A stretch of DNA of 63,063 nucleotides, the filler included, from Bigelowiella natans CCMP2755 (taxonomy: Eukaryota > Protista > Cercozoa): the NCBI GenBank assembly GCA_000320545.1. It is 9 parts of 9 records of this genome, joined end to end, with 100 filler letters (N's around TTAATTAATTAA, not from the genome) between each part and the next. Parts side by side here need not be neighbours in the genome. Positions count along the whole stretch, not along the records: positions 21,482 to 29,815 come from ADNK01003562.1; 8 more parts are not named here. One strand, given 5' to 3'. The notes below the pieces were generated by a model. That model saw only the letters and a program-made list of their open reading frames with translations. It was not told where the DNA came from and searched no databases. Positions within the stretch are counted from its first letter, which is position 1, and the number at the start of each line of letters is the position of its first letter. Below, piece by piece: positions 1 to 55,229 of the stretch. The translations under genes were made by a program, and so were the position numbers.

Positions 1-38
1 GGCGGGTGGGCGGGGGGGGACCAATTGAATTGCCTGAC

Positions 39-468
39 CTTGTATGTGTTGGTGCGGTGAGCCTTCTGCAGTCGATGTACATCCCTCACGGCCTGGGCAT
101 AGTTCTTCTCCGCCTGTGTGTTGGGGGAGGGGGCGGCGGCGAGGAAACAGCAGTTGTATAAACGACGACGACGATGACTATTTTGATGATGGAAGCCTCC
201 ACAACCGAGCGCTGCACGATGATGCAGGGAAAGGAACGTACGGAGAGAGGGGAGGAGAGGCCGATGCAAGCTTAGTGCTTGGCCATTTTGCTTTTGAAGT
301 ATTATTATAGTATAGTATAGTATAGATTGCGTATGATAGAGCCGTCGTTATGCTCCAATACAATGTATTCGCACCCTCTCCCTGTAATTGCTACCTTGAT
401 GGCCCCCGCTACTTGGTGTTGGAGGTAGGACTCGTGCTTTGGAAGTTTCGCCTTGGCCTATTAAAATA

Positions 469-510
<42 letters not shown>

Positions 511-564
511 AGATGCTGTTGTCATCTTTGCCTCTGCTGTATGTTCAGTTGTATGTATGTAGTA

Positions 565-604
<40 letters not shown>

Positions 605-693
605 GTGTGTGTGTGTGTGGTATTTCTCTGGTGCTGCTGTTGCTGCATGACTTCTTCGCAATCATTGCACGCTACTGCTATAATTTTTTTCTC

Positions 694-725
<32 letters not shown>

Positions 726-884
726 TATTTGCCCCGACCAAATACCTTGTCATCACTGCTATTTTTCGCCTCGTTTCGGAGATTTATGTATTTTTCACAG
801 TTGCGGCACCAGCTTTGATATCTGCATTATGAGGAGGCGTCTAGTATCAGCTATAATTACCAATCACGTCGAAGTACAGTTCGT

Positions 885-921
<37 letters not shown>

Positions 922-2107
922 GCTTATGTTAATTACTGACTTCTTTTTGAGTGAGTTCATATTGCTGCGGGCCCTTTCCAAGTCCTGAACAAACGCAAAG
1001 GAGAGAAGCAGAGAGAGAGGAGGGAGGGGGGGGGGGGGGGAAAAACAAAAAATTGGATCCACCACCAATCATTGTGTACTGATGTTGACGGTGTTCCAAA
1101 CACTGACAACAACTGCTACTACTGCTAATACTACTATTATTACTACCTTCTTGCTAGTCTCGTAGGATTTAATGCATTCTCGTTTTGCAGTGGACTGCTT
1201 GTGCCGCATTTCTAATACATAACAAGCGTAAGCAATTTCGAGCTCATTTCTTTCTTGATCTGCTCTCAAACATGATCTCCATCATCATTATCATACAGAA
1301 CTATCACTGGCACGAGTGTTTCTTCCTTACTAAAAACTAAATGGACAGTTACCAACGAAGGCCTCCCTATCCGTATCCATGATCTGATTTACTTCCTGCA
1401 TCGCCAGCCCTGTGTTGTTCGTCGTCGTTGTTTGTTGTTATAGTTGGTTAGTTGCGACCAATAGACCATATAGAGTGAAAAGCCCGCAAAATCGAAGAAA
1501 AAAAGCGTGGACTCAAATGCAGCGAGAGGAAGTGGTTGATCGGAGCGAAAAGAAGGAATGAAATGCCGAAATCCAACTAACCCATCTTCTGCACACTGTG
1601 CTTGACAGTATCGTATGCTTGTCTTAGCGTGGATGTAGCCTAATAATTGTTGTTTATCGGAGAGTATTAGCACTCAACAATCTCCCATTGCTACTTCACA
1701 GAGGGAGTTTTGGTGTGCTTATTACTCGCAGATGTGCACGGAGTCAATCAAGGGGGGGGGATAGAGTTAGGGTTAGGGTGAAAAAAGATGCGATAAAACC
1801 TCGCTTTCAGGCAACGGATGTTGTTGCGCACGTTTTTCCAGCTCAGCCCCACATTGTTTGAAAGCTGTTTTAAATGTGCACAACGTATGTATAGAAAACA
1901 TATACGAGCGCGCGCGTGCGCGCATATATGAGTGTTAAGAAATGTGACACACCTCTGGCCCACTCGTGGATAAATGCTGCCATAGCCTTCAGGCTTTGCT
2001 TACCTTCCCAAGCATAAGCCACTACGGGCTGTTATGTGGCCAAAACTATCAGTAAATTGTAAAACGTGAACTACACATTAGAGTCCAGCTTCGAACCTTG
2101 TAGCCTT
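39..2107 (-). CDS. F-BAR/FCH-domain-like coiled-coil protein, multi-exon, partial (3' end runs off window; 5' exons uncertain)
   Basis: GT-AG exons join in frame: EGYK|PVVAYAWEGKQSLKAMAAFIHEWAR|AFKQCGAELEKRAQQHPLPESE|ATSTLRQAYDTVKHSVQKM|GLAMQEVNQIMDTDREAFV|DQERNELE...|DLERARSNMNSLKK|YQSWCRNCEK...|AEKNYAQAVRDVHRLQK. The pattern resembles FCH/F-BAR helices. Confidence 0.6.
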
Positions 2108-3303
2108 CTGGAATCGTGGAGAAGTGGTTAATGGCAGGCTGTTGGCCAGGGGCAGACGGGGGGGGAGGAGGAGAAGCCATCGATAACAGCTGTACGGAGT
2201 GAGCGAATGTACGAACGTACTACCCTGAAGAGTGGTAAGACATATCACCGCATGAAATCCACACATTTCTTCGGAACTCGCAAGGAAGCACCATGCTGTA
2301 GAACTTGTTATGTTTATTTTCCAAGGGAAAGTAGAATTTCCTTAATGAAACGTTCTCAAGTATTCATCTATCTTCTGCGGAGTTGCCAAGTGAAATATGC
2401 TCGAGCTTAATTCGTATCGCAAATTTCACAGCACACAAGAAAGGGGAGGACGGGGGCCAGTCACTGCGTAACTACAGCCCCATCTATCCACTTTTGAAAG
2501 TAACCCACATGCGCACCATCACAACATACACAGTCAAGATATGGTCCGCACCTAGACGTGGAGCAACCAACGGGTGGACTGACTGCCGCTAAATAGACTC
2601 GCAGGGGGAGAGCAAAAAGGAGTCGAGGCAGAATGTAAGACCGAAATGCTCTGATGGGAAGCACAAGAATGCGGCATTTTCCCGAATAACAGGCCATCTT
2701 TGATGAAGAGAAGGGAGATCGCCAAGTCGCTTCCGACACATGCCAGACAGTCCAACCAAAGTCGGAACGAAGGGCCGATGAGGATAAGTCGAAATGCAAA
2801 ATTAAATATCGGCGCGTGCAATTCAGACCCTCGATGCCTTTTAAGGATCACGGTGAGAGAAAAGTTCTATCGCGCGACTAGAAATTTCAGCCGAAGTCCG
2901 CCCAAAGTATCATGCATTTTCACAAGCATGGTCATGCTTTCGGAACATAAACACCTTGACTGCGTCACCGACACGGGCTGCTACGTGAGGGAAATGCAGG
3001 AGGTTCGTGATGAGAATTGCCCCGAGAAGTGGTATTTGGAGCGTAAATCGCTATGTCACATCGAGTGAGTTCGAGTATCGGAAAGAAGCAGTTCTTCGGC
3101 ATCGGGATACACCGTTCGTCCGTCCCTGGATAAGCAACAGCTCAGATCCAGCTCCCCCCCCTCCCCCCCCCTCGAGGATTAATTTTTTATCGTGAAACTT
3201 ATTACGGGCTGCAGGTAAAAGGGATGGCGGTTGATGTCCTTCGTAATATGAGATTACTTTGTGTCATCTGGTGGCAGATAGATACACATACTGTCAAAGC
3301 AGA

Positions 3304-4835
3304 ATGGGGACGGAAGGCGCAGCGTCGCTGCCCTCGTTATCTGAGGAGAAGGGAACAAAGGATAGCAGGCTCGAGACCGACAAAGTGTCCGTCATGATCG
3401 GTATGGAGGTGCGGTGCCAGTTTTGGGTGTTGGGGCACCAACTCGATCATATTTACACGTGTCCTTGTAAAATCTACAGTTTCTATCAAATCGATGGATA
3501 TTTTAGGTGCAGGCACTCGATTCATCTTATCCACGTCGGGGCGTTCCTCATCATTGCAAAGATATCGAGCTCTTTTGCAGGAAATTCTCAAATTCGACAT
3601 CGCTTACATCCCAATATCCTCATCCGCAGGCCCCAAAGGTATCTTATGAGTATCTCAGCGACCTATAATCATCTTACAGACTTTCATCGGTGGTTATGAT
3701 ATTTATAGCTCCGATCGACCCAGAAAGATTTTGCATGGCTCTTCGCGGGATGAACTGCATTGGAGGTGACGAGCAAAATGGGAGAGGGAGGGAGGGGTAG
3801 ACTATTCGGCCAAGATCGTAGATAATTCTAATTGCACTCTCTCTCAGTCGCTGACAAGCACGTGTATGGAACATATAAAACCGAAAATAAAAAAAAAGGT
3901 GCCATCAGCAGGAATATTAAGACCTCCGTGGTGCCCTACCTAGACGCTGTCAGTCCAGACGCCAAAGGTATCGGCGTTAACACCGTGATTCGAAAGGGGG
4001 ATAAACTTATAGGCTACAACACGGACGCGATCGGGTTCATGAAGGCCATACAAAGAGGAGTGGCAGAAGCAAATGTAGCAGTAAAACGGGCCATCGTGTA
4101 CGGATATGGGGGGGTGACTAACGTGGTCGTCAGTGTTCTAAAAGACAAGCTAGGCTATGAGGTGAGGCATCAACCGACTGCATTTCCTAGGGATGACGAC
4201 ACCATAGCGATTCAGCTAATTACTACAGCTGGTAATATATATTGAGCTCAAGTGCTGGCTTCTCGTCGACTCCGTTTCAGGTTTATCTCACAGGCCGTTC
4301 ATTCGAGAAGGCGAAGGCTAGGGCCTCTCAACTTGGTGTGAAGAGCATCAATGTTGTCGGTAAAGCTCCAGGTGTGATTCACGCGCATATATGGCCGCGA
4401 ATAAAGTAATTACTTTCCTCTGTAGACCTCATTTCAAATTGATGTTCCTTCAGACACTTCTACACTAGACGGACTAAGCTTCGATCTGCTTGTCAATGCT
4501 GCTCCAGTAACTGACAATGAACTCTCAAAGGCTTCAGGACTACTAGAAACTCTGGCGATGGGTGTTAAGGTGGCGCTCTAGCGTATTATTTATATCGGAG
4601 GAATGATTGAAAACTGATAAGCTTCACGTTTCAGGTTTGCTTCGATCACGAAATGCCTGGTGCGAAGCTGAAACAGTATTGTGCAAAGAACTCTATACAT
4701 CATATTTCCGGCTACGACATGTACTATCCACAAATGTACAAGCAGTGGGCCTACTTCCTCGAGGGACTCGTGGAGGAGGAAACGATCCCTGAACTAATTA
4801 AATCAGCAGAAACTGTGATGAAAAGTTCTCTTTAA
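3304..4835 (+). CDS. aroE: Shikimate dehydrogenase (AroE/YdiB family), multi-exon
   Basis: Motifs ALRGMNCIG|GAISRNIK, GVNTVIRKGDKLIGYNTDAIGF, nucleotide-binding VYGYGG, LLVNAAP, SGYDMYYPQ. Start could be 3224 or 3304. Confidence 0.8.
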
Positions 4836-6046: not shown

Positions 6047-6543
6047 CGTGTGCAGGGGGGTTTAGATAGAGCTCACAGGCGTCAAAAGTCGACTCGAAAA
6101 AATGGAGCGTCCGAAAGAATTCCTCCTCCGCATTTCGTTGGCCGATTAATCGCCTTTCATCGTTTTGAGGCTCCTCGAGAGGGTGAAATCCCCTGCGTTT
6201 TCTGCAGCAATCTTTTTTTTTGTATTGCTGGCCGATTTTTCTCCTGAAAATGCAGATATTCAGGCGGATTCGAAGGCAATTTGAGATCGTTCTTGCCGAC
6301 TCTCAATGCGTTTTTTTCCTGCGACAACAATCACAACAATCACAACAATCACAACAACAACAACAACAACAACGACAACAAGCGCAACAGGACGTCGATC
6401 GCTCACCTCCCTCCTCGTGCTACGATCGCAGAACGACGACACAATGCCGTGAGTGGAAACGAAGAGAGAGAAAAAGAGGAGTTTTGTTTCCAGTTAATCT
6501 AATGAAAACTGCGTCGAAGAAGCATCTCTCGCAAGAGAGAATA

Positions 6544-6698
6544 ATGTCGTCGTCAGAGTGGGAACAGGATACAGTGAATTGCTTGTCCAAGATCCATGGC
6601 GACCATCGCCCTGCAGTGGTTATCTTCGACCTGGATTCAACCTTGTGGAATTGCAATGCCGAGGACGTACGACATGTCAACACGGATCACCATAACCA

Positions 6699-6744
<46 letters not shown>

Positions 6745-20982: not shown

Positions 20983-21759
20983 GTAGTGCGTACATAACTA
21001 CATTGTAGTAGGTGTAGTAGTAGTAGTAGTAGTAGTAGTAGTAATGGGAGGAGGAGGAGGAGGAGGAGGAGGAGGAGGATGAAGATGATGCTACTTGCCG
21101 TTCTGAAATATTGCAGGCGAGAAGCAGGAAGAATGTTGAGTAAAGACATAATTGTTTCTCTCTATCCCTTACTGTACTAACCAGAGTTCTCTAAAAAACG
21201 GTAGTGACGGGAAATATAACAAACCGCAACAGTTATCATTACTACCGGTGACCTTCCCCTCTGCAAAAATGAAGGGAGGAGGGGCAGCCCCCCCTCCTCT
21301 CCTCCTCCTCTTCCTTCTTTATCTGTCATTCTTTGCTGGATAAAATAGTACAAAACAATGAGAAACCTTGCATTAAAATATNNNNNNNNNNNNNNNNNNN
21401 NNNNNNNNNNNNNNNNNNNNNNNNNTTAATTAATTAANNNNNNNNNNNNNNNNNNNNNNNNNNNNNNNNNNNNNNNNNNNNGACGCTTATACGGATTGGA
21501 AGAACACAGAAAGACATCGTGAAATGTTGAACAGAAATTCATTTTGGCAAGGAAAGCAGGTAGCGAAATGGGCTGGAGCAGCAGCTTTCATGGACAAGAT
21601 ATTGATAATTGAGCATCTTTAGATAATTGTTTTGATGATTCAACTACATGGGGGGGGGGAAGGCGGAGAGAATCGTGTTGACAACTTGCTCCCCTGTACC
21701 TAATATATCGTACTTTCGACCCACTTACGCGACCGCCCCCACCGCCCCTCCTTTCTCAG

Positions 21760-22862
21760 GTTGCGGCATTGGAGCGTATTGCTTCCACTCCAACGCCAGT
21801 CATTCTCGACCCAGTGGGATTTGGTGCGACATCTTATCGCAACGAAGCAATCTCCGACTTTCTTAGCTCCGTGAAAAGGTAGGAGGGGGTTCATATCTCT
21901 TGCAGCGATACAACATAAATGTAAATACTACCGTTTTTGGATGTTAATGCTACACGAAGGAAGGCGGCCATTCTCGAAAATAACAGCGTGGATTTGTTGA
22001 TATCGTGACCATAAACATGTAGGCTTACGGTTATCAAGGGAAATGCCAACGAGATTTGTGGCCTAGGTGTCATTCTTGCATCATTTATCTTCATCGAATT
22101 TATGAGTAAGACCTAAAGGCAATCTTTTAGCTGGATACCAGGGTAAGGGGCAAGGAGTTGACAGTGATGCTTCCACTGCCATAGCCATCGAACCAGCGAA
22201 GACTCTCGCCAATACGCATGAGTACGTTCATCTAGACCACCTTAGCTGCTCAGCACTTCGGATAAAATATTAACCTCAAGCCGTGAAAATATTCTTGAAT
22301 ATATATATTAATATAGTTTATATATACATGTGTATAAACATCCTCTATGTTACAACAACAAAATTCCAAAGTCTTTGCCATGCCTGCACCCTACACTCCA
22401 GGTGTGTAGTCGGGATTAGTGGCGACACGGACATTGTCGTAAGCGCTGATGGAAAGAAGGCGATTAAGGCGAGTTTTAATACCCAGCGTTAGCCCCGAAT
22501 ATATACGCAATGAAAATCCTCTGACACCCAACTCTTCGCGTGGTATTCCAAAGGTTGTAGGCGATGTTCCCATGATGGCTCAGATCACAGGAACAGGGTG
22601 CTCTTTGGGAGCGTTAGTAGCAGCAAGCGTTGGGGCGAATATCGATGAAACACCCGAAGGACAAAATGAAAGCTCCTCCGCATTTTATGGCGCCTTGGCT
22701 GCACATTCGATGTTCACAGCAGCGGCAGTAAGGGCGAGTGCGAGGACTGACGTTCGGGGGCCTGGAGGGCTCAGCATAGCGTTAATGGACGAGCTCGCTC
22801 AACTTGCAGGAGATCCGGTGGCTGTGATGGAAGCTGTAGAATTACACGAATGCGCGGTGTAA
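21760..22862 (+). CDS. thiM: Hydroxyethylthiazole kinase, multi-exon, 5' part missing
   Basis: PVILDPVGFGATSYR, TVIKGNANEI, GQGVDS, VVGISGDTDIV, MMAQITGTGCSLGALVAA and RGPG motifs. Confidence 0.9.
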
Positions 22863-22866
22863 GAGT

Positions 22867-23018
22867 GTGTGATGTGTAAGTAATAATAATAATAATTATT
22901 ATAACTGCCAATGGCAGTGTGTGTGCAAGGCACACCTCGCAAAGCGATGCGACTGTAACTTGTGATGCTATCATTAGCGGTTATAATAATTATTATTATT
23001 ATTACTTACACATCACAC
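22867..23018. repeat. Perfect 39-bp inverted repeat at the putative virophage terminus
   Basis: 22867-22905 (gtgtgatgtgtaagtaataataataataattattataac) is the exact reverse complement of 22980-23018. The spacer holds three small hairpins. Confidence 0.95.
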
Positions 23019-23146
23019 CGCAAAGCGATGCGACTATGTTATGCGACAGCATTATGCGACTGTATCATTATGCTGTATCATATTACATCATTACACTTAT
23101 GTTTCCAAGGGGTGTTTTTCAGGGGAGGGGGTATATATATATGAGT

Positions 23147-23217
<71 letters not shown>

Positions 23218-23500
23218 AAAAAAAAAAGTTAGTTTTTTTAAAGTACCTATAATCTCTCATTATCAATAAAATGAATGAGGTTAAGAAAAAACACTAATTA
23301 AAGTGGGGTCTGAAAAAAAATGAAGAAGCATACGATGTCATTATGTGCTATGTGCCGTGCCGTGCTGTGTGCTGTGCTATGTATGTATGTATGTTGCGAG
23401 GCGATATGTGATGCTATGCGACTGCTATGGGACTGCTATGCATGTTGCGATGATGGCATGTGCATAAAGCGAAGCAAAAGGATTTTAGCAAAGTTTATCA

Positions 23501-23974
23501 TCACATAGTCAACAACTTCTCAACATCAGTGTGTCCCCCTATGTCTGCCAAATCAAGCGGAGTCTCACCATTCTCATCCTTCACATTGAGATCCGCTTTT
23601 GCCTTCATCAATTCCTTAGCAATGTCAATGTATCCATATTGACTTACCAAATGCAGTGGAGTCACACCACAATCGTTCTTCGCATTCACATCCGCTTTTT
23701 TTTCAATCAATTTTTTAGCAATGTCAGTGTGTCCTTCATAACTTGCCCAATGAAGCGGAGTCATATCATTCTCACCCTTCGCATTGACATCCGCTTTTTC
23801 CTCTATCAATTTCTTAGCAATATCTGTGTGTCCATCACTACTTGCGAAATGAAGCGGAGTCCTATTGCAATGATCCTTCGCATTGACATTCGCATTTTTG
23901 TCAATCAGTTGTGTAACGAGTTCCAAATTTCCATCCTCACAAGCAGAGATAAGGTCCTGATTCAAATTTTCCAT
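23501..23974 (-). CDS. Ankyrin-repeat protein (157 aa), intronless, within the virophage
   Basis: Tandem 33-aa repeats TPLHxAxxxGHTDIAKKLIExKADVNAK. Confidence 0.95.
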   Translation of the reverse strand: MENLNQDLISACEDGNLELVTQLIDKNANVNAKDHCNRTPLHFASSDGHTDIAKKLIEEKADVNAKGENDMTPLHWASYEGHTDIAKKLIEKKADVNAKNDCGVTPLHLVSQYGYIDIAKELMKAKADLNVKDENGETPLDLADIGGHTDVEKLLTM

Positions 23975-23988
23975 TTTGAGAGGTGGGG

Positions 23989-25104
23989 TTAGGACAACAG
24001 TTTTGCAAAGAAGATATTTTCGGTCCTAGTAAAAATCAACTTACGAAATTGCTTTCTTTTTCGCTTACTAGTCCGTATTTCAACAGGTTCATCGGTCCAC
24101 TTCTCCCTCGGTTTCGGTGTTTTTTTCTCAATTGCTTTTTTGACTATTTCGTTTTCAGCAGGTTTCAGTTGATTCTTGCTGAAAGTTTTGTCTAAAACAC
24201 CTTCCAAAATACATCTTACTGGTCGGTCAGGTAATAATAATATGTTTTCAATTTTATGCGGTTTCAACGAATATCTTATGTCGCCCTCCCTGAAATTGCC
24301 TATTTGTTTCTCTCCTTTGAAATTCACAGGATAATCCAATTTGTATCTCACCTTCCTGCCGACTTCGTATAAATCACAATCACCTCCCTCCTTACAAGGA
24401 ACTTCTCCTGTCTGCTTCAACTTCTTCACCTTAGCATTCTCGTTCAACTTCTTTAATATGTCAGGTAATAACTTTAACCACTGCTTACTTACTTTATCGT
24501 TCTCTAATTCTTTCACCAACTGAGTTTTAATAATAATACTGCCGATACTCTTATTTCGTGCTTCCACATTTGCCTGTTGACTATGCCTTGCAACACCTGC
24601 TCTTCTTAAATATATACCTTTCTCTCTCAAATAATTATCCAATCCTTCTTTAAACTCACTTCCAGCATCTACCTGAAGGATTTTCGGCGGTTTCAATACC
24701 TTGTTCTCGTAATATATCTTGTCTATCGCTTTTCTTACCGCTTCAGCAGTCCTTTTTCGTAGAGGTATAGCATCAGTTTGTTTAGTATAATTATCTACTG
24801 CTACTAATAAATATCTAAACCCTCTATCATTAGGTAGATAGAGCAAGTCCATCTGTCCTCGCTTACCTGGATACCCATAGGCATCGTTGTGGGTTGCTTT
24901 TACTTCAGGGTCTTGCTTTTTCTCCCTGGTCAGTTCATCTACTAAATCCTTACTCTTCTTGCCGATTAAACTTCCCAGTATGGTTGGTTTCTTCTTTCGT
25001 TTGACTATCTTTTTCACTATTTTCTTTTTAGGCATTTCAGTTTCAGTATCAGTGTCATCATCATCACTACTGCTTTCACTACTATAAGGTTCTTTCTCGT
25101 CCAT
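23989..25104 (-). CDS. Retroviral-type (rve) DDE integrase of the Polinton/mavirus kind
   Basis: GQMDLL...YLLVAVDNYTK...LQVDAGSEF...ANVEARN (DD34E); C-terminal YEVGRKVRY...FREGDIRYS. Likely start is MDEKE at 25104. Confidence 0.92.
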   Translation of the reverse strand: MDEKEPYSSESSSDDDDTDTETEMPKKKIVKKIVKRKKKPTILGSLIGKKSKDLVDELTREKKQDPEVKATHNDAYGYPGKRGQMDLLYLPNDRGFRYLLVAVDNYTKQTDAIPLRKRTAEAVRKAIDKIYYENKVLKPPKILQVDAGSEFKEGLDNYLREKGIYLRRAGVARHSQQANVEARNKSIGSIIIKTQLVKELENDKVSKQWLKLLPDILKKLNENAKVKKLKQTGEVPCKEGGDCDLYEVGRKVRYKLDYPVNFKGEKQIGNFREGDIRYSLKPHKIENILLLPDRPVRCILEGVLDKTFSKNQLKPAENEIVKKAIEKKTPKPREKWTDEPVEIRTSKRKRKQFRKLIFTRTENIFFAKLLS

Positions 25105-25144
25105 ATACATAATGTGAGATATAAAATATATGTAGTTTATTTTA

Positions 25145-25339
25145 ATGGATAAAGAAATAGAACGAATGCTCATACACAAGGGATTAACCAAAGGAATAAT
25201 AAGTATGATAGATGAATACCTACATCAAAGTTATTTAGTGTGTTTAACTCATAATTTCCGCAGACTAAACAATAGTCCTAAACTTAAGTTCATCAACAAA
25301 TTAAATTTTAAAAAAAAAATATGTAAATTAATAATATAG
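25145..25339 (+). CDS. Small hypothetical virophage protein (64 aa)
   Basis: ATG ORF divergent from the integrase, with the shared upstream motif (TATGT, 11 nt before ATG). Confidence 0.55.
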   Translation: MDKEIERMLIHKGLTKGIISMIDEYLHQSYLVCLTHNFRRLNNSPKLKFINKLNFKKKICKLII

Positions 25340-25343
25340 GAAT

Positions 25344-25520
25344 ATGATAAAGTTAATATATGAATTAATCGTAAATTTACTGCCTGACAATTTTACAACA
25401 TACAGGAATGATGATGCTGTTGTGGTTTATGACAGGTCAGTGTGGAAGATGGAAAGCAGGGACGATGCTATATTATTGATTAAGAAGAATATATGTAATA
25501 TGTCAATAATAAATTGTTAA
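25344..25520 (+). CDS. Small hypothetical virophage protein (58 aa; below the ORF-track cutoff)
   Basis: MIKLIYELIVNLLPDNFTTYRNDDAVVVYDRSVWKMESRDDAILLIKKNICNMSIINC* fills the gap between the previous ORF and a hairpin. Confidence 0.5.
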   Translation: MIKLIYELIVNLLPDNFTTYRNDDAVVVYDRSVWKMESRDDAILLIKKNICNMSIINC

Positions 25521-25535
25521 TATATATTTTCCTCC

Positions 25536-25588
25536 AATATTGAAATTCAACACTTTAGACACCCTCCAAGGTGTTGAAACACAATATT
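25536..25588. terminator. Intergenic stem-loop, candidate transcript 3'-end signal
   Basis: aatattg..ttcaacac pairs with gtgttgaa..caatatt, immediately after the ORF ending at 25520. Confidence 0.5.
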
Positions 25589-25621
25589 AAATTAAATATA
25601 AAAATATATAGTATAATATAT

Positions 25622-26581
25622 ATGAATAGTATACTCAAAGATGTTGATAGAACTTCTCTCTTTCCAATTAGGCACAAAGACATATGGAATGCCTACAAGA
25701 TACAACAAGCAGGATACTGGACCGCCGAAGAAATAGATTTCAGTAATGATGCCGATGACTTCTCCAAATTAAGTCAGGACGAACAAAAGTACTTAAAATA
25801 TACACTCATCTTCTTTGCGAATAGTGATATTGAAGTGAATGAAATGATAAATAGGAATCTATACGAGGAGTTTAAGGCATTAGAAATTCGTATGTGCTAC
25901 GACTTTCAAAGGCAAATGGAAAATGTACACACAGAAACATACAATCTACAGATAGATACTTTGATAAAAGATAAAAAAGAAAAAGAGGATTTAATAAATG
26001 CTGTAAAGAATAATCCTATCATAGAACAAAAGATTAACTTCTGTAGGAAACAGGTCTTGTTATACAACTCCATACAGCATAAATTGATATGTCAGGTCAT
26101 CTTTGAAGGCATATTCTTCGCTTCCTCGTTTGCCTGTATTTACTACTTCAAGCAGAAAGGTATATTAAAAGGTCTAACTTTATCTAATGAGTTCATCAGC
26201 AGAGATGAGAACCTACATTATAGTTTCAGTATTATGCTGTACAATAAGTTAGAGAAGAGACTATCACAAGCAGAAGTAGCGGTATTGTTTGATAAGGCAC
26301 TATGTATTGAGCGAGACTTCATCACACAAGCATTGCCTGTTAGATTTTTAGGAATGAATGCGGATATGATGTTAGACTACATCAAATTCACAATAGACAA
26401 CATATTACTCAAATTAGGTTATGATACAATCCACAATGTGAGTAATCCTTTGACCTGGATGGAAAGACTGGATTTACAAGGCAAGACCAATTTCTTTGAT
26501 AGTAGAGAAAGCAACTACCAATCTGCTAATGTATTAAACGAGAACAAAGAAGACATCTTCCAAGTAGACCTCAATTTTTAA
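25622..26581 (+). CDS. nrdB: Ribonucleotide reductase small (beta/R2) subunit, class Ia, intronless, virophage-encoded
   Basis: WTAEEIDFSND, FFANSD, MENVHTETY (ExxH plus radical Tyr), EGIFF, SNEFISRDENLH, GKTNFF..R...YQ and C-terminal FQVDLNF. Likely start is MNSILK at 25622. Confidence 0.96.
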   Translation: MNSILKDVDRTSLFPIRHKDIWNAYKIQQAGYWTAEEIDFSNDADDFSKLSQDEQKYLKYTLIFFANSDIEVNEMINRNLYEEFKALEIRMCYDFQRQMENVHTETYNLQIDTLIKDKKEKEDLINAVKNNPIIEQKINFCRKQVLLYNSIQHKLICQVIFEGIFFASSFACIYYFKQKGILKGLTLSNEFISRDENLHYSFSIMLYNKLEKRLSQAEVAVLFDKALCIERDFITQALPVRFLGMNADMMLDYIKFTIDNILLKLGYDTIHNVSNPLTWMERLDLQGKTNFFDSRESNYQSANVLNENKEDIFQVDLNF

Positions 26582-26598
26582 TATCTAAATTATTATAG

Positions 26599-26814
26599 AT
26601 GCTACTGGAAATAGTTAGACTATTACAATTACAACTACGATTAACAAGATTAAGAAAAGAGATAAACAAATTGATAAAGCAAAACAAGAAACTGATAAAA
26701 GAAAACAGCAAATTGTTGATACAATTAAATATTATGAAACAACCCTTTGATGACACTGGTGATTTAAGTGATAGTGCTTTTAGGATGTTGATGAACGAAG
26801 TAAATGAAAAATAA
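26599..26814 (+). CDS. Small coiled-coil hypothetical virophage protein (71 aa)
   Basis: Heptad-like LxKENxKL repeats; preceded by TATCT 12 nt before ATG. Confidence 0.6.
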   Translation: MLLEIVRLLQLQLRLTRLRKEINKLIKQNKKLIKENSKLLIQLNIMKQPFDDTGDLSDSAFRMLMNEVNEK

Positions 26815-26829
26815 TCTAATCTTTATTAA

Positions 26830-26940
26830 ACGATCGTAGTGTTATTAATATTAGGACTTATCTTTTCCATAGGTTATACGATAGGAAAGATAGTAGCAAG
26901 GAACACGGATTTAGACCCCACCAACGATATTAGAGTATGA
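26830..26940 (+). CDS. Possible 36-aa single-TM micro-protein starting at ACG (non-AUG start or mutated ATG)
   Basis: Frame (T/M)IVVLLILGLIFSIGYTIGKIVARNTDLDPTNDIRV*; ATCT lies exactly 12 nt before the ACG. Confidence 0.4.
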   Translation, partial: TIVVLLILGLIFSIGYTIGKIVARNTDLDPTNDIRV

Positions 26941-27241
26941 TAAGATTAAATCTGTCAGCATAGTCCTCTAAACTATCCTTCAAATCAGGTTTATTCCACA
27001 AGACCCAACGAGATAATGAACCAGCAGTCAGGAATTTGCTCCAATCTTCATTCTTCATATGCCTTGTCAGGTATCTATCTTTTCTGTTTTCATCTTTATG
27101 TATCGTAAAGTCGCTATACCGACTATCTCCAAAGTCTGTGTGTTTTACTTTTATTATCCTTCCACCCTTATCAACATAAAAGAGCATCCTATGCTTCTTA
27201 TTTTTAAGAGGTGATTTCATTAGTTTAATATATATTTTCAT
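26930..27241 (-). CDS. Conserved small viral protein (DUF5754-like)
   Basis: KKH...FGDSRYSDFTIHKDENRKDRYLTRH...W...AGSLSRWVLW resembles a family I recall from large DNA viruses; the Pfam name is from memory. Confidence 0.7.
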   Translation of the reverse strand: MKIYIKLMKSPLKNKKHRMLFYVDKGGRIIKVKHTDFGDSRYSDFTIHKDENRKDRYLTRHMKNEDWSKFLTAGSLSRWVLWNKPDLKDSLEDYADRFNLIIL

Positions 27242-27256
27242 ATTATAATAGTTAAC

Positions 27257-27342
27257 ATAAAATAAATTGTTAAAAAAACAATTTATTTTATATTAAGAGG
27301 AAAAATAAATTTCTATTTATTTTTTCTTGTTCTTAACAAGAA
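27257..27342. terminator. Cluster of three AT-rich hairpins downstream of the major capsid gene
   Basis: Perfect 15-bp stem 27257-27271/27277-27291; 10-bp stem 27301-27310/27315-27324; 8-bp stem 27324-27331/27335-27342. Confidence 0.6.
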
Positions 27343-27358
27343 TATTATAATATAAAAT

Positions 27359-29182
27359 TCATAATAAAGAAGAGAGTTTCTTTTTCATCCCGCCACCACT
27401 TACGGATGCTTTACCTCCCATCTTTTTCTTAAGCACATTTGCTCCCATTTTAAGAACGGCATCTTGAACTTTAGGATTAGAGGCAATATTTTTCACAGTT
27501 TTTCCAACTTTAGATGCTAAACTGCTGAAGAACCCTGAACCGACTAATTTGTTTTCAACATCACTTCCTCCAAATTGTGCTGATAATACATCTTGTTCTG
27601 TAATAAGGTTCTTAACAATCATAGAAGAACCTGCTACAGTCTTGAAAAATCCTGATTGAGGGGTCATAACTACAAGTTGAAGGTTTGGAATAGCAACATC
27701 ACCCATTGCTGTAGGTTTCATACAGGTTGCTTGGAGTTGTAATGTGTAGTTTCCAATCACACCTGGTGCTTGAGAAGGGTTTAATTCAATATCTTTACCC
27801 ATTTTAGCAATGACGAACCCACCACTGGTGTGGATTTTTCTGCCTTTACTTCTACTGCTTCCAATATAGGTGTGGAAATCAATTTCTAATCCATTATCAT
27901 AACTCATCTTGTATAATTTATCCACAGGCATTGTGTTTAAAAGACCGCTTCTGTTATCAAAGGTAATGTTTAAATTTGTGATGGGAAAATAGAATTCATT
28001 TTCAGTCGCATCATATGTTGTTTTCTTAACAGCAATAATTAAACTATCAGGGATACTTGGTAATGTTATAGTAGATGATAATATGGTTTTACTATTGTTT
28101 ATCCCTTGAGGAAAACCATTACTATCAATAGTTCTATATGTAGGGAACTCCACATATGGGACAATATTTTCAGGACTGACTTTGAGGTCTAAAGCAGGAG
28201 TTAAACACACAACATCTACATAACTTTGTAAAAATGGTCCTGGTTTATTCGCTAATGTAACGAATTCTGCTCTACAGGTTATAGGATTATTTTCAGTGCC
28301 GATTCTGTTTCCATCGTAACAGACTGCTCTGCTTGGGTCTTTGAAATTGATTTGTAAGGTAGCATTGTTAACACCATATAAACCTACACTATGATAATTC
28401 TCTGGAACATAGCATAACGGACTAATCATAAGTTTCTCTTTGGATGTAAATTTTAGGAAAAATTTATATTCTGCTTGGACAGCATTTCCAACTGCTCTTA
28501 CGACTGGTTCGCCATCCGCATATGGATAAGCAACACCACCTATGGTCACATTTCCATTAAAGTTGTCCGGTAAAACATCGCCATTAGCATCTACAAAGTT
28601 AACATCAAAATGTGCTCCATTCTTGTGGTAGAATTTATCGCCGTCAAAGAACCCAGTAATACTATTATTGAATGCTCCTTTACCTTCGCTATATTTTCCA
28701 TAAGGTGACAAATAGGAAGGGCAAATCGCACTGCTACTGTCATATTTTGGGTCAGTAGTCATTAGAAGCAACTGCTCGTTTATGGATTGGTCTAAATTAG
28801 TTGTGGATACTGTATCGTTGATTTGTAAACTCATTGTGGAAACCATTCTGTGTAAAGGGAAGTTGTTTAATGATAAGATTTCACTTAAGGTTGCGATTTT
28901 AGCACCTTGAGCAGGGTTTCCACCAGCACCAAAATCAGCATTAGTATTAAAATCACCTCTGTTTACAGTACATAAAAGGGTGACCTCGCTGGTCCAGTTT
29001 ATCTTTCGGTCAACGAAGACATTTAAAGAAGGTATGGTAATGTTATAGTTTTGATTACTCGCACTTGCGGATAAGGATTTAATCTGTTTGTTATTCACTG
29101 ACATAGAACTCTTAGAGATTTTGTATTCAGGTGGTAACTGAACTGTTCTTGCATCATAAACTGCTTTCTTACTTAAATTCAT
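27359..29182 (-). CDS. Virophage major capsid protein (double jelly-roll, 607 aa)
   Basis: Sputnik-V20-like motifs: IPSLNVFVDRKI, FPLHRM...QINDT, EKLMISP, GLYGVN, SSTITLPSIPDSLIIAV, ITFDNRSGLL, LYKMSYDNG, APGVIGNYTLQ, plus a G/K-rich C-terminal tail. Confidence 0.92.
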   Translation of the reverse strand: MNLSKKAVYDARTVQLPPEYKISKSSMSVNNKQIKSLSASASNQNYNITIPSLNVFVDRKINWTSEVTLLCTVNRGDFNTNADFGAGGNPAQGAKIATLSEILSLNNFPLHRMVSTMSLQINDTVSTTNLDQSINEQLLLMTTDPKYDSSSAICPSYLSPYGKYSEGKGAFNNSITGFFDGDKFYHKNGAHFDVNFVDANGDVLPDNFNGNVTIGGVAYPYADGEPVVRAVGNAVQAEYKFFLKFTSKEKLMISPLCYVPENYHSVGLYGVNNATLQINFKDPSRAVCYDGNRIGTENNPITCRAEFVTLANKPGPFLQSYVDVVCLTPALDLKVSPENIVPYVEFPTYRTIDSNGFPQGINNSKTILSSTITLPSIPDSLIIAVKKTTYDATENEFYFPITNLNITFDNRSGLLNTMPVDKLYKMSYDNGLEIDFHTYIGSSRSKGRKIHTSGGFVIAKMGKDIELNPSQAPGVIGNYTLQLQATCMKPTAMGDVAIPNLQLVVMTPQSGFFKTVAGSSMIVKNLITEQDVLSAQFGGSDVENKLVGSGFFSSLASKVGKTVKNIASNPKVQDAVLKMGANVLKKKMGGKASVSGGGMKKKLSSLL

Positions 29183-29212
29183 ATATAATTACACCGAGAA
29201 AAAAAATTTAAA

Positions 29213-29815
29213 CTATTTTTGCTTTCGTTGAAACATTAGTTTTAGATGGATGCTACTTTTGTTAGGCATTCGTATAGGGACTAAATCACCTGTCAACCGA
29301 TGCTTCCAAAATGCTGAAATCTGTATACTTTTCAAGGGAATGTTAGCAGAGGTAAAGTTAATATATCTGTATTCACCGCTTGGAACATAGGTAATCGTTC
29401 CGCTATAATCATCGGCACTACTAATACCTACTGTCATATCACTAATAACCTTTTGGGAGGTATCTTGCCTACTATCGCTTACTTGCTGTCGGTCCACAAA
29501 TTCTAAAGGTGTTCCCGTGATTTCACTCTCAATGGGAATGATATTGGTAGTAAATACAATCGCACTGACAGGACACCATAAACTGCTTACACTCTCATAG
29601 TCTTGAGATAAAATACTATATGTTTTATTTCCTTTGGTGAGTGAATGAATGTCTAAATCATCCTCAATCGGTAGAATATCGTAGGCACATCCCGGTATAG
29701 ACATATTTTCAACTATATCAGTAATCGTGCCTCTGTTATATTCTATAGTGTTTTTAAGGTCGCCTCCTATATAGTTGTGATGAAAATTGCTAAAGAGTAA
29801 GAAGAGGTTGCTGTT
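29213..29815 (-). CDS. Virophage minor capsid (penton) protein, 5'-truncated
   Basis: QDYES...WCPVSAIVFT...PI, YVPSGEYRY, PLKSIQISAFWK...G.L.P, KLMFQRK. The frame stays open to the contig end (NSNLFLLFSNF...) and sits directly upstream of the MCP gene. Confidence 0.88.
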   Translation of the reverse strand, partial: NSNLFLLFSNFHHNYIGGDLKNTIEYNRGTITDIVENMSIPGCAYDILPIEDDLDIHSLTKGNKTYSILSQDYESVSSLWCPVSAIVFTTNIIPIESEITGTPLEFVDRQQVSDSRQDTSQKVISDMTVGISSADDYSGTITYVPSGEYRYINFTSANIPLKSIQISAFWKHRLTGDLVPIRMPNKSSIHLKLMFQRKQK

Positions 29816-50525: not shown

Positions 50526-53500
50526 TCATCGCTTTCGGAACTTCACCAACCACCAGGTAATAGATTCCTCTCTAACCTTATCTCCTTTGTCGCTTACCCA
50601 GAACTCACCTTCGTCCTTAGGTTCGTGTCCATACCAGCCCTCTGCATCAAGGTCCCCCAGGACCTTATACCAGTGCTCAAAGGGTAAGTCGGGAACAGCT
50701 AGGTAGAGTAGCTGATATTTTCCGTCCTTTATTTTCATAGCTACCCTCTCCATATTTCGTAATCCAGGGTAGCCTAGATAGACAATCTTCATGCGCCAAT
50801 CGTCGTTCACCCTGACCTTATTGTTTCCATATTCCACATCGAACTTAGGTCGGGGTCCTAAACAAGGCATTGCTCGCTCCCACACAGTAGGGTTTACTTT
50901 AACATCCTCTAGGAGCTTCTCACCGATATCATAATTCTTTAGGTGACTGATGTGGCGCAAGGTGACCCTGTTCCCATCATAGATGTAGTACTGCTTCCTC
51001 CCCTTCCTCTCGGTAACCTTTGCAACGCCACCCCAGAAGGGGTCTTGTTTATTTCTCGATCTCAGATTTACCTTGGCCCTAACATACTGTCCTTCCTTTA
51101 GAACTCGGCCATCGTACGGGACCTTCTCGTCTTCGCTCTCGGTATCGTCGTCGTTGTCGTCGCCTTCTTCCCTCTCCTTATCCTTGATACCTCCCCCAGA
51201 CGTGAAGGTGTCGTTTACTAACCCTTGTATCTTGTCTGGTGTGGTGCTATTTATCCTGCTTAGGTTGGCCAAGGTGCGGTGGAGTCGCTCTACCTTGGAG
51301 TTGGACTGGGCATAGTATACAGGTGAGGCATCAATATTAGGGTGTGGTAGCTGTAGAAGAGAGGTCTCATTATCCACATGTAACTTCTTTGGTATCTTGT
51401 TTATGCTAACTTCATCAGGGATAGCCTGGAGCTCAGACTCCCAGGTACGGTAGCAGTTAGTAAGCCTCTGCTTATATAAGCCTTTGTTCTTCTTAGCAAC
51501 GTTGACCTTGATAATCTTTTTAACCCAGCACTTTCCAGTGGCCACATCAACGAAGGTAAGGTAGTGATAGCCATCGTACTTATAAACATCAATTTGCACG
51601 ATATCTAAGAAGTTCCTTGCTTTGATTTTCTTAGATGCACGGCTCTTGCTGGACTCCTTGGTGGCGACGCCTGCCGCCTTCAAGCTGGAGCACCTGCAGC
51701 CACGCAGGTATGTCCTTATCTCTTTTAGCTTGTAGGGCCAGTAGTAATGGTAGAGTAGAGCAGTGATATGGTTTTCTCCTACGTGTGCAGGTCCATGGGC
51801 GGTAAAGAGAAGGGCTCCCCTGGTCCGCCGTGGCACGTAGGTACGCCTAACATTATTAGTGTATACATATATCCTATCACTAAGTACCTCATGCTTGTGT
51901 TTGTATTTATCCAGGTGTTCTTGAAGGTGCTGGAGCTCCTCTGGCTCAGGCAGGAAGTCGCCGTCCTCGAAGGTAATCGCGTTAACCATAGGGGTGACCT
52001 GGGTAGGGACTTTCTTTTGGAACAGCCTGCTGAAATAGTCAGCAAGCTGCTTGTCTCCTGGTGCGTAGACCACTGTCCTCTTGTCCCTAAACTCTTCCGT
52101 GTCCGCCCTCATAGCTGCATACTCATCGTTAGGCGCTTCGAGCTTGCGGTCGATGCCTAGGAGGGGCTTGTGGTCAGTCATTAAGGTGAAGCTGGGCACC
52201 GACAGCAGGTAGTATCTTAGTTTCCTCTGCGCCTCAGTCATGGCTTTATACTCTCCTTTTGTAGGGCTGTACTTGGCCTCAGCTGCTGTGCAGGCCCTGC
52301 CCCACACCCGTATGATCTGCTGGTCTTGGGTAAGTACAGCAGCCATACCTAGCTTAGACCAGTCTGTCCATAGGGTAGCTGGTCTAGTAGTGTCTAGCTT
52401 AGCATTCAATAGGGTGTTGCTGCATAACTTTATTAGGTTATCGAAGTGGGCATCAAGGCCAGCCTTGGCCCACACCTTAGCGAAGCTGAGGCCTACAGAG
52501 TTCTCCTTCCGGTAAGCAGTAGTAAAAGCAGCTGCAGTCCTAGCGTAGGTAGGGGAGAACCTACGTAGTATCCAAGCTGCAGTCTGCAAGAATGACTTTA
52601 ACTCCTTTGCATTCTTAGGTTTAGGGGCTTGCTGTAGTGCTGCTACTTTCTCGGGGTTTGGGGTGATGCGGCCTTGCTCCAGGTAATATCCACACCACTT
52701 GATTCTTGTAGCTAGGAATGTACACTTCTGCAGTCTAATAGTAAAACCGAAGTGTGCAAACCTAATAAATATATTTTCCAGGAGGAAGATCTGAGCGACG
52801 ACTGTGTTGGTACATATTATGTCATCATCCACATACACAAACACAAACACCCACAACACAGACGCCATCCCATCATGTGTGTATGCCCTGTAGTTCTGAC
52901 TACTGAACGCATCCCCTGATATGCTTAGGCCGTAAGGGAATACGACGAAGTGCCACTTCCTGTGCCTGCTGGAGAACGCGGTAATGGGGCGGGAGGTTTT
53001 GTGGATGGGTGTCTGCATGTATGATTCATTTTTATCTAGGGAAGAGTAGTATTTGTATCCTATGACGTGTTCAATAACGTCATCTATCCTTGGTGTAGGT
53101 GTCTGGATCCTCTTTATTACTCGGTTGTGGCGGATGAAGTTGTGCGCCAGGCGGAAGAAAGGGTAAGTAGGTTTCTTAGCTAGCACATGTCTCACGTTCC
53201 ATGGTGAGTTGCTTGGCTCTATCTTCCCTTCCTTTGCCCATTCATTGATCTGCCACTCTATCTTTTCCCAGTCCGCTTCCGGTCGCCTATGTTCTGGGTC
53301 ATTGATGATGCACTCTTCGTATCCCTTCTTTAGCTCGATCTTTACTGGGGTAAGCTTGCTGGAGGGCTTCGTCGTCGGCTTGGTGATGTCAGAGTACTTC
53401 TCGTTTAATATTTTATTAATGTACTTTTTGCCTTTGTCGATATCCCAATCATCAGCTGGGGGGGTCTTGTCCAGTAGCTCCGTTATCTGTCGGATGGTCT

Positions 53501-55229
53501 TGCCGGGGTTCTTCTTCCGTAGCTCGGTAGGTGTAGGTAGCTTGTTGTCCGCTAGGTCCATAAACTCTAACGCATTAACGCTTGACTCAGAGGTCCACTC
53601 GTCAAGCCGTATCATGTTCTGGCTGATGGTCCTGCCTGACTTCTTTGGCAACTTAGCAAAGTATATCTTGTGATTGTAGAATGATATGATCCCCCCTAAT
53701 TTTTCTAGGGCATCCTGTCCGAGGAGTAGTTCCATGGATAAAGTCATGGCTACTCGGGTCTTGATTTGGGTCTCCGCGTCGCTGCCAGGTATCTGTAGCT
53801 TTAGCATTAGCTCACCGACGGTCTTCATGGAAGAGCTTCCGTCTGCTTGAGCATATTTACGTTCTTTCTTAGTCACTTGATCCAATAGTCCTAACCTTCT
53901 TACTGTGCTTAGGCTTATGAAGGACTTCGGCATGCTGCCACTATCCCAAAGGGCAGGTAGTTTCTTGTAGTCTCCGTAGCTGTCTTTAACTTTAACCTTG
54001 GTCATAGCAACTTTGATAGTCCTGTTAGCGTCTTCGTCATTAATGTTGCATACTCCTAAGTTCTTTATGTCGTCTAGGGTCATGGGCTTGTCTTGGTCCT
54101 GCGTTGCTGGTACTGCTGTCTTCGTCGGCGCCTGCTTAAGGTGATCTAATATTCCGTTTATCTGCTGCTGTATAGCATTGATACTGTTCTGCTTTTTGTT
54201 CTTATATTTATTGTTCTTCCCGTTGTTGCTGCCTTGCCATTTGCTGTTGTTATATCCTTGTCCTCTGCCTTTCTTTCTCTTTAACTTCTCGTAGTGTTCG
54301 TTGAGCTGCCTGATCGTCATCCTGGGTCGTCCTTCTTTCCTGTCTCTGCAGTCTTTAGCGGTGTGTTTCCCTTTACGTGAGCAGTATCCGCAACGTCGGT
54401 TACCTTCCCTGTCCTTGTACCAGTCTCGCTGCGGCTTAATAGCGTTAATGTTTCCTATGCCAGGTACCTTAGGGCTGGTAAACTTGCGGTCCTGCTCCTG
54501 CTCGCGTAGGGATATAGCCTGCACTGCTGCCTCCATCGTGGTGTAGCCTTTCTCCGTAACGTAAGTGGATTCCTTTATCTTTAACTTGAACTCTTCAAAC
54601 CTTGCCTGATCATCACCTGTGTTGTAATTAAAATCATGTAGTTCGTCGATCATATCCTGGAAGCGCGTGGCAAAGTCTCTAACAGGTTCTCTCTCATGCT
54701 GCATCATTGCTCTGTATTTTCTAATAGCCTGGGGTAGGGAGTTAGCATCCTGTTCATTTACAAAAGCCTTCATTATCGCCTCAACGTCTCGTAGCCCACT
54801 AACTGTAGTGTGTATTTTCTCTAGCTGCCTGATCCGGGTCCTGCCTGTCTCGTAAAGGTCCATGGCTTGCTTTATTATAGCTAGCCATTTGAGCTTGTCG
54901 TTTTCGGTGGGGTTAGGGGTAAAGTCGCAGAGTATACTCCTAGCGTTCTTCCACCACCTCCTTGCCTCACCTCTTTTCCCGTTGTATTTCGTTATCATAA
55001 CCGGTGCTGTTTTAACAGACATGAACTGGGTGTTCCGCTGTACCGGCTGCTGCTGCTTGACGGTGCTCTGGGTCGTCCCCCGCGAGGCGCCCAGACCCCC
55101 GTCGTTCCTAAACAAAGCTGCCCACTCTGGAGGTAAGTCTGCTTCGTAATCCATGATGTCCTGCATGATAGCTGCCCAAACATCATGTGTCTGATACTTG
55201 TATTCTATCGATACTTTCAGTTTGGCGTA
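50526..55229 (-). CDS. Gag-Pol polyprotein (more than 1546 aa; frame open to contig end)
   Basis: Zn knuckle CGYCSRKGKHTAKDC; protease LWDSGS; RT FPYGL and YVDD; RNase H TDWS/TDHKPL/ADYFSR; integrase HxxxH-CxC, QID/HVD/KVE; SH3-like module; extra C-terminal domain. Confidence 0.96.
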   Translation of the reverse strand, partial: YAKLKVSIEYKYQTHDVWAAIMQDIMDYEADLPPEWAALFRNDGGLGASRGTTQSTVKQQQPVQRNTQFMSVKTAPVMITKYNGKRGEARRWWKNARSILCDFTPNPTENDKLKWLAIIKQAMDLYETGRTRIRQLEKIHTTVSGLRDVEAIMKAFVNEQDANSLPQAIRKYRAMMQHEREPVRDFATRFQDMIDELHDFNYNTGDDQARFEEFKLKIKESTYVTEKGYTTMEAAVQAISLREQEQDRKFTSPKVPGIGNINAIKPQRDWYKDREGNRRCGYCSRKGKHTAKDCRDRKEGRPRMTIRQLNEHYEKLKRKKGRGQGYNNSKWQGSNNGKNNKYKNKKQNSINAIQQQINGILDHLKQAPTKTAVPATQDQDKPMTLDDIKNLGVCNINDEDANRTIKVAMTKVKVKDSYGDYKKLPALWDSGSMPKSFISLSTVRRLGLLDQVTKKERKYAQADGSSSMKTVGELMLKLQIPGSDAETQIKTRVAMTLSMELLLGQDALEKLGGIISFYNHKIYFAKLPKKSGRTISQNMIRLDEWTSESSVNALEFMDLADNKLPTPTELRKKNPGKTIRQITELLDKTPPADDWDIDKGKKYINKILNEKYSDITKPTTKPSSKLTPVKIELKKGYEECIINDPEHRRPEADWEKIEWQINEWAKEGKIEPSNSPWNVRHVLAKKPTYPFFRLAHNFIRHNRVIKRIQTPTPRIDDVIEHVIGYKYYSSLDKNESYMQTPIHKTSRPITAFSSRHRKWHFVVFPYGLSISGDAFSSQNYRAYTHDGMASVLWVFVFVYVDDDIICTNTVVAQIFLLENIFIRFAHFGFTIRLQKCTFLATRIKWCGYYLEQGRITPNPEKVAALQQAPKPKNAKELKSFLQTAAWILRRFSPTYARTAAAFTTAYRKENSVGLSFAKVWAKAGLDAHFDNLIKLCSNTLLNAKLDTTRPATLWTDWSKLGMAAVLTQDQQIIRVWGRACTAAEAKYSPTKGEYKAMTEAQRKLRYYLLSVPSFTLMTDHKPLLGIDRKLEAPNDEYAAMRADTEEFRDKRTVVYAPGDKQLADYFSRLFQKKVPTQVTPMVNAITFEDGDFLPEPEELQHLQEHLDKYKHKHEVLSDRIYVYTNNVRRTYVPRRTRGALLFTAHGPAHVGENHITALLYHYYWPYKLKEIRTYLRGCRCSSLKAAGVATKESSKSRASKKIKARNFLDIVQIDVYKYDGYHYLTFVDVATGKCWVKKIIKVNVAKKNKGLYKQRLTNCYRTWESELQAIPDEVSINKIPKKLHVDNETSLLQLPHPNIDASPVYYAQSNSKVERLHRTLANLSRINSTTPDKIQGLVNDTFTSGGGIKDKEREEGDDNDDDTESEDEKVPYDGRVLKEGQYVRAKVNLRSRNKQDPFWGGVAKVTERKGRKQYYIYDGNRVTLRHISHLKNYDIGEKLLEDVKVNPTVWERAMPCLGPRPKFDVEYGNNKVRVNDDWRMKIVYLGYPGLRNMERVAMKIKDGKYQLLYLAVPDLPFEHWYKVLGDLDAEGWYGHEPKDEGEFWVSDKGDKVREESITWWLVKFRKR

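Follow-up and report, generated by a model that had tools for sequence, protein, structure and literature searches.

Contig layout and gene content

The contig at positions 21482-29815 of the analysed Bigelowiella natans CCMP2755 sequence begins with a host gene and continues into about 7 kb of viral genes, which raises the question of what kind of virus lies next to the host gene, whether this copy is new, and whether it could still be active. The window, i.e., the whole stretch of 63,063 nucleotides that was analysed, comes from a fragmented assembly (GCA_000320545.1) and consists of nine contigs joined by spacers of 100 N. We conclude, with a probability of about 0.92, that the 8.3-kb contig contains, next to thiM, 7 kb of an endogenous virophage, namely the copy on reference scaffold 161, likely belonging to the B. 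natans provirophage family of 2015. The viral part, from 23501 to the contig end, has a GC content of 34.5%, while the thiM part (the first 1.4 kb) has 46.6% and the other contigs of the window 45.0-46.8%. The ORFs were assigned by Pfam profiles, and the features are as follows.

21760..22862, plus strand: last five exons of thiM (hydroxyethylthiazole kinase; PF02110), at 21760-21878, 22023-22066, 22131-22221, 22402-22468 and 22554-22862; the exons 5' of these fall before the contig start
22863..23500, no strand: non-coding terminal region, candidate terminal-repeat sequence, in which ATGCGACT/GATGCTAT words flank an (AT)n tract
22867..23018, no strand: inverted repeat of 152 bp (arms of 47 bp with 96% complementarity), beginning 4 nt past the thiM stop
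23501..23974, minus strand: ankyrin-repeat protein, 157 aa, 99-bp repeats (PF13637, E 2e-40)
23989..25104, minus strand: rve (DDE) integrase, 371 aa (PF00665), without a chromodomain
25622..26581, plus strand: class Ia ribonucleotide reductase (RNR) small subunit (R2), 319 aa (PF00268, E 9e-78)
26599..26814, plus strand: coiled-coil ORF, 71 aa, with sub-threshold coiled-coil Pfam matches only
26930..27241, minus strand: DUF5754 protein, 103 aa (PF19058, E 3e-14)
27257..27291, minus strand: perfect hairpin with a 15-bp stem and a 5-nt loop, 3' of the MCP stop, candidate giant-virus-type terminator
27359..29182, minus strand: virophage major capsid protein (MCP), 607 aa, Sputnik-V20-like (PF21915, PF22031)
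29213..29815, minus strand: penton (minor capsid protein; PF21507), of which the last 200 codons are present, the 5' part being lost at the contig end

A reading of the DNA made from the sequence alone (below, the sequence-only reading) had taken this contig for an rve-integrase virophage integrated at a host junction, and the profile searches bear this out. The 607-aa protein, for which a profile check had been proposed, matches both virophage MCP domains (PF21915 with E 1.3e-35 and 123 bits, PF22031 with E 5.2e-35 and 121 bits), and the penton ORF, which is open to the contig edge, matches PF21507 at positions 243-379 of 380 only, i.e., its last third. The call of a DDE integrase also holds, as PF00665 is matched and the residues D86, D146, and E181 are kept. 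None of the six main viral ORFs (ankyrin, integrase, RNR, DUF5754, MCP, and penton) contains an internal stop and all are intronless, and they share the contig with an intron-containing thiM, both as had been claimed. The RNR small subunit, the ankyrin-repeat protein, and DUF5754 had gone unnamed in that reading. R2 can be aligned over its whole length with the mouse protein (1h0n; E 4e-79) and carries W33, D69, E100, H103, Y107, E162, E196, H199, and Y299, which we take to be the metal-site and radical-path residues.

Identity with the provirophages of B. natans

The possibility that the lineage or gene set might be new found no support in the comparison with the reference gene models, as MCP, integrase, RNR, DUF5754, and thiM match named B. 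natans models at 93-100%. The MCP is identical to the reference model aug1.161_g22165 (P0121) over 604 of 604 residues and 94-100% identical to four B. natans models in all. R2 is 98-99% identical to five named B. natans sequences (nine accessions), DUF5754 shares 93-95 of 96 residues with the B. natans models, and the integrase is 96% identical to P0145. Among the 231 matches of the MCP search, the best was a B. natans protein (96%); an unnamed fragment (93%) ranked second, after which the identity dropped to about 42%; neither the MCP as a single query nor the integrase alignment found a relative in viral_contigs. The MCP phylogeny that had been proposed as a check agrees with these results: in a quick maximum-likelihood tree (IQ-TREE, 58 rows, midpoint root) the MCP of the window groups with P0121 inside a clade with a support of 100, made up of five B. 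natans rows and the ENA fragment P0002 and sitting on a long stem.

Judging from consecutive model or accession numbers, near-identical genes stand in the same order at several places of the reference genome: INT-RNR-DUF-MCP on scaffold 85, MCP-DUF-RNR on scaffold 187, RNR-DUF-penton/MCP on scaffold 54, and INT-RNR on scaffolds 94 and 146. According to a review cited in part, Blanc et al. (2015) described 38 virophage-like elements of low GC content in the genome of B. natans, many of them truncated, six with TIRs, and most transcribed (PMC6723459), and a passage of a second source states that these elements carry a retroviral integrase (PMC6428243). As far as the comparison via reviews goes, our element fits them in its retroviral-type integrase, its GC content below that of the flanks, and its multi-copy core genes. 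It thus shares with the B. natans provirophages the species, an MCP identical to a model, the rve integrase, the low GC, and the INT-RNR-DUF5754-MCP order, and differs from them at the copy level only, by a frameshift in the integrase tail, a few private substitutions, and the ankyrin ORF. The last of these follows the integrase at the place where the model on scaffold 94 (P0183) passes into sequence of coiled-coil and Kelch type. The element is therefore already known at the family level and almost certainly at the locus level. The discovery value is accordingly small, the B. natans provirophages being a standard example of algal endogenous virophages.

State of the genes

The copy had been described as having an intact capsid and integrase module. 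This is correct insofar as the ORFs are open and the D-D-E residues are kept; on the other hand, the penton stops short at the contig edge and the tail of the integrase is frameshifted. Past residue 352 (about position 24048), the integrase is out of frame relative to six of its seven siblings, which end in VDRGFFV. As the last residues of the siblings are present in another frame, a short deletion is implied. In addition, the substitution Y298C is private to this copy and occurs in none of the seven siblings. A spliced integrase-ankyrin fusion, considered because of a GTAAGT after the integrase, is unlikely, as these bases are the terminal V-S codons of the siblings in another frame. The break in the penton, for its part, is an assembly gap, because the penton-MCP reference model g22165 continues for 392 residues upstream of what the contig holds.

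The copy could therefore be a defunct relic, already truncated or in decay, from which no virions arise even with a helper virus. The frameshifted integrase tail, the private Y298C, and the reports of many truncated B. natans elements (PMC6723459, in the passages cited) speak for it, while the six open main ORFs, the catalytic residues kept in both integrase and R2, and the assembly gap as the cause of the penton break speak against it; we regard the odds as even. This alternative concerns activity alone and is compatible with a provirophage. Since the copy is drifting, as seen in the integrase tail and Y298C, yet otherwise open, the insertion is probably recent.

Host junction and end of the element

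The five thiM exons have GT/GC-AG borders and their spliced frame is open, without a stop. The spliced product is identical over 199 of 199 residues to the B. natans model aug1.161_g22160 (P0191), found via a cluster of the last thiM exon, when a 10-residue exon extension is set aside; a search for longer ThiM proteins gave P0182 as the sole match. The identity shows the flank of the element to be B. natans nuclear DNA. On reference scaffold 161, thiM (g22160) and the MCP (g22165) are five models apart, though the window and the reference possibly come from the same sequencing data, so that the agreement need not be independent. The gap between the two comprises four model numbers and the contig has four main ORFs there, a correspondence by number only.

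A chimera, with an assembly error at the (AT)n tract fusing host DNA to a virophage copy that belongs in another place, would be conceivable given this tract of about 60 bp (23153-23214) in the junction region, a multi-copy family of near-identical elements, and an assembly so fragmented that 63 kb comprise nine contigs. However, with thiM and an identical penton-MCP model five models apart on scaffold 161, and with identical rare words flanking the tract, we consider it very improbable. The ATGCGACT/GATGCTAT words are repeated on either side of the (AT)n tract, and four of the six matches of ATGCGACT in the whole window fall within 22863..23500. Eight 8-mers are common to both sides, compared with a control mean of 1.5, and only 5 of 2000 controls were as high. 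The rare words on both sides thus place the probable start of the element near 22863-22867 and not at the microsatellite.

The 152-bp inverted repeat at this position folds with a z-score of -11.4, and none of 200 shuffles was equally stable. It likely represents the element's outer end but may instead be part of the host 3' UTR. A TPP riboswitch or another RNA family behind thiM was ruled out, as the contig gave no Rfam match at E<=1. No other copies of the element end were found among metagenome contigs and viral contigs. The terminal motif had no match in the metagenome contigs, and its four matches in viral contigs are attributed to chance, being short (20 nt in three of the four) and on contigs with no gene in common with the element.

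Relationship to other virophages

In the passages cited from Roux et al. (2023), virophages sensu stricto (Maveriviricetes/Lavidaviridae) have genomes of 15-45 kb and depend on giant viruses, and are recognized by the MCP as the main criterion, the penton as an expected one, an ATPase, and a cysteine protease (PMC9952930). The contig, with about 7 kb of viral sequence and one end of the element, contains a virophage-type MCP and the C-terminal part of a virophage-type penton, both judged with Pfam models rather than ICTV profiles; a packaging ATPase, a cysteine protease, and a second terminus are absent from 21482-29815. In L092, a patchwork contig that belongs to this family, a peptide encoded upstream contains part of a Walker-A-like motif; it matches 32 of 84 viral loci and has no Pfam match.

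When the MCP profile was compared with solved structures, Sputnik V20 was the best match (E 6e-65), far nearer than chain 6g45 (E 5e-10), which is presumably the mavirus MCP. On the other hand, the element shares with mavirus and the Cafeteria EMALEs nuclear integration via an rve integrase and a penton ahead of the MCP. Thus, its integration follows the manner of mavirus, but without a mavirus-like MCP it is not a mavirus-type member. A B. natans virophage has been placed in the MCP group Vp.cl15 together with YSLV5, according to a passage of PMC6905037. An autonomous Polinton or Polinton-like virus (PLV) instead of a giant-virus-dependent virophage is barely credible, even if rve integrases are common to Polintons too and B. 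natans carries PLVs as well (PMC5499653, in part), since MCP and penton match virophage-specific Pfam families, the MCP profile matches Sputnik V20 as given above, and PLV genes are described as lacking similarity to virophage marker profiles in the passages from Roux et al. (PMC9952930).

The related loci were taken from IMG/VR as the best 80 of 480 confirmed, many of them partial and 44 at least 10 kb long. Metagenomic virophages of the broad MCP group have MCPs 32-37% identical to that of B. natans. Among the best 80 of 480, a penton was present in 76, DUF5754 in 15, and an RNR small subunit in 5, whereas the B. natans-type integrase and the ankyrin-repeat protein were found in none of these often partial loci; the 71-aa coiled-coil ORF was likewise found in 0 of the 80. 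EMALE07 carries an RNR small subunit like the B. natans element (PMC8547959, in the part cited), and together with the five related loci among the best 80 of 480 this rules out the virophage RNR as a novelty. Passages of further papers are cited for context (PMC5127031, PMC10120064, PMC10945749, 10.1101/068312, 10.64898/2026.07.28.741278).

If the endogenous virophage arose as these likenesses suggest, a virophage genome would have entered the nucleus, where its own DDE (rve) integrase, working at the genome ends, would have placed it immediately 3' of thiM, by analogy with mavirus. By the same analogy, virions would need a co-infecting giant virus (PMC6723459 and PMC6428243, as far as cited). 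The capsid would be built from MCP and penton, with an ATPase and a protease predicted to lie past the contig, and the putative role of R2 would be to pair with the R1 of the host or of the giant virus and so raise the dNTP supply. To express its genes and replicate, the element would rely on co-infection by a giant virus of the Mimiviridae type, as the terminator-like hairpin 3' of the MCP suggests.

Giant virus and possible activity

The hairpin after the MCP was matched in quality by 1 of 2000 shuffles, its intergenic region has a z-score of -7.6, and it is the sole non-microsatellite one among the eight hairpins listed for the window. Terminator hairpins are reported for Mimivirus and virophages, and that of the MCP fits them (PMC7031253 and PMC6277510, in part). 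Other counts speak against giving the hairpin much weight: only two of the seven folded non-coding segments were structured, just one of these following a stop, and a terminator-like hairpin was seen after only one of the stops tested. Among related loci (from the best 80 of 480), a hairpin followed the MCP in only 5 of 76.

The element had been taken to imply an unknown giant virus of this alga. This claim is weakened by the isolation of four giant viruses infecting B. natans, ChlorV-1 to -4. In the passages cited, ChlorV has a GC content of about 19% and the late motif TCTA, integrated giant-virus genes of the alga match it at less than 35%, and the endogenous virophages of B. natans are mentioned (all PMC13196603). 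TCTA was found within 40 nt upstream of one of seven ORFs and is absent before the MCP, so use of the ChlorV late promoter is unsupported. Given the GC content of about 19%, the mostly absent TCTA, and the match below 35%, the true helper may be a virus other than ChlorV. In mavirus and in EMALEs of type 4, unlike the B. natans element, reactivation is documented; a reactivation test with ChlorV was found neither in the passages of PMC13196603 nor in the titles and abstract openings of seven papers from 2024 onwards.

Blanc et al. reportedly put forward in 2015 the idea that the virophage insertions protect the alga. With giant viruses of B. natans in culture, this idea is now testable, and the private variants of the scaffold-161 copy would mark it among reactivated particles. 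It appears unlikely, in our estimate, that ChlorV switches on the provirophage family, this copy among it, as a live reservoir against giant viruses, with genomes ending in the 152-bp fold-back hairpin and R2 tapping the ribonucleotide reductase of the giant virus. If true, however, it would be the first working system of alga, giant virus, and provirophage in Rhizaria.

Virophage Genes and Patchwork Contigs

A C-terminal chromodomain (PF00385) was found in 14 of the 37 relatives of the virophage integrase at 23989-25104 (minus strand), while the window integrase itself and its closest relatives have no such domain. The segment immediately 5′ of the ribonucleotide reductase small subunit gene (25480-25621) is AT-rich and structured (z −3.9).

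Two contigs of the metagenome collection, L092 (positions 1-3569) and L093 (positions 1-1358), consist of short colinear pieces of the virophage at 21482-29815, each 29-121 nt long, that abut each other. In L092, 23 pieces match the window virophage at 89-100%, and pieces located upstream show likeness to a packaging ATPase and to a lipase-like gene with a GHSLGG motif. L092 and L093 probably arose as an artefact or were pieced together synthetically.

Host Genes and Retrotransposon

Two further features were annotated in the window:

6187-6708, plus strand: acid-phosphatase exon fragment of a host gene (weak PF12689 match, DxD motif)
50529-55229, minus strand: gag-pol ORF of a Ty3/gypsy-like LTR retrotransposon (reverse transcriptase, RNase H, aspartyl protease and integrase zinc-finger matches)

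The gag-pol ORF runs for at least 1567 codons without a stop and is truncated by the contig end.

The host thiM gene likely contains an intron with GC-AG borders at 22469-22553. Splicing it out yields a product longer by 10 residues, which are absent from the reference model and present in P0182, a longer ThiM relative.
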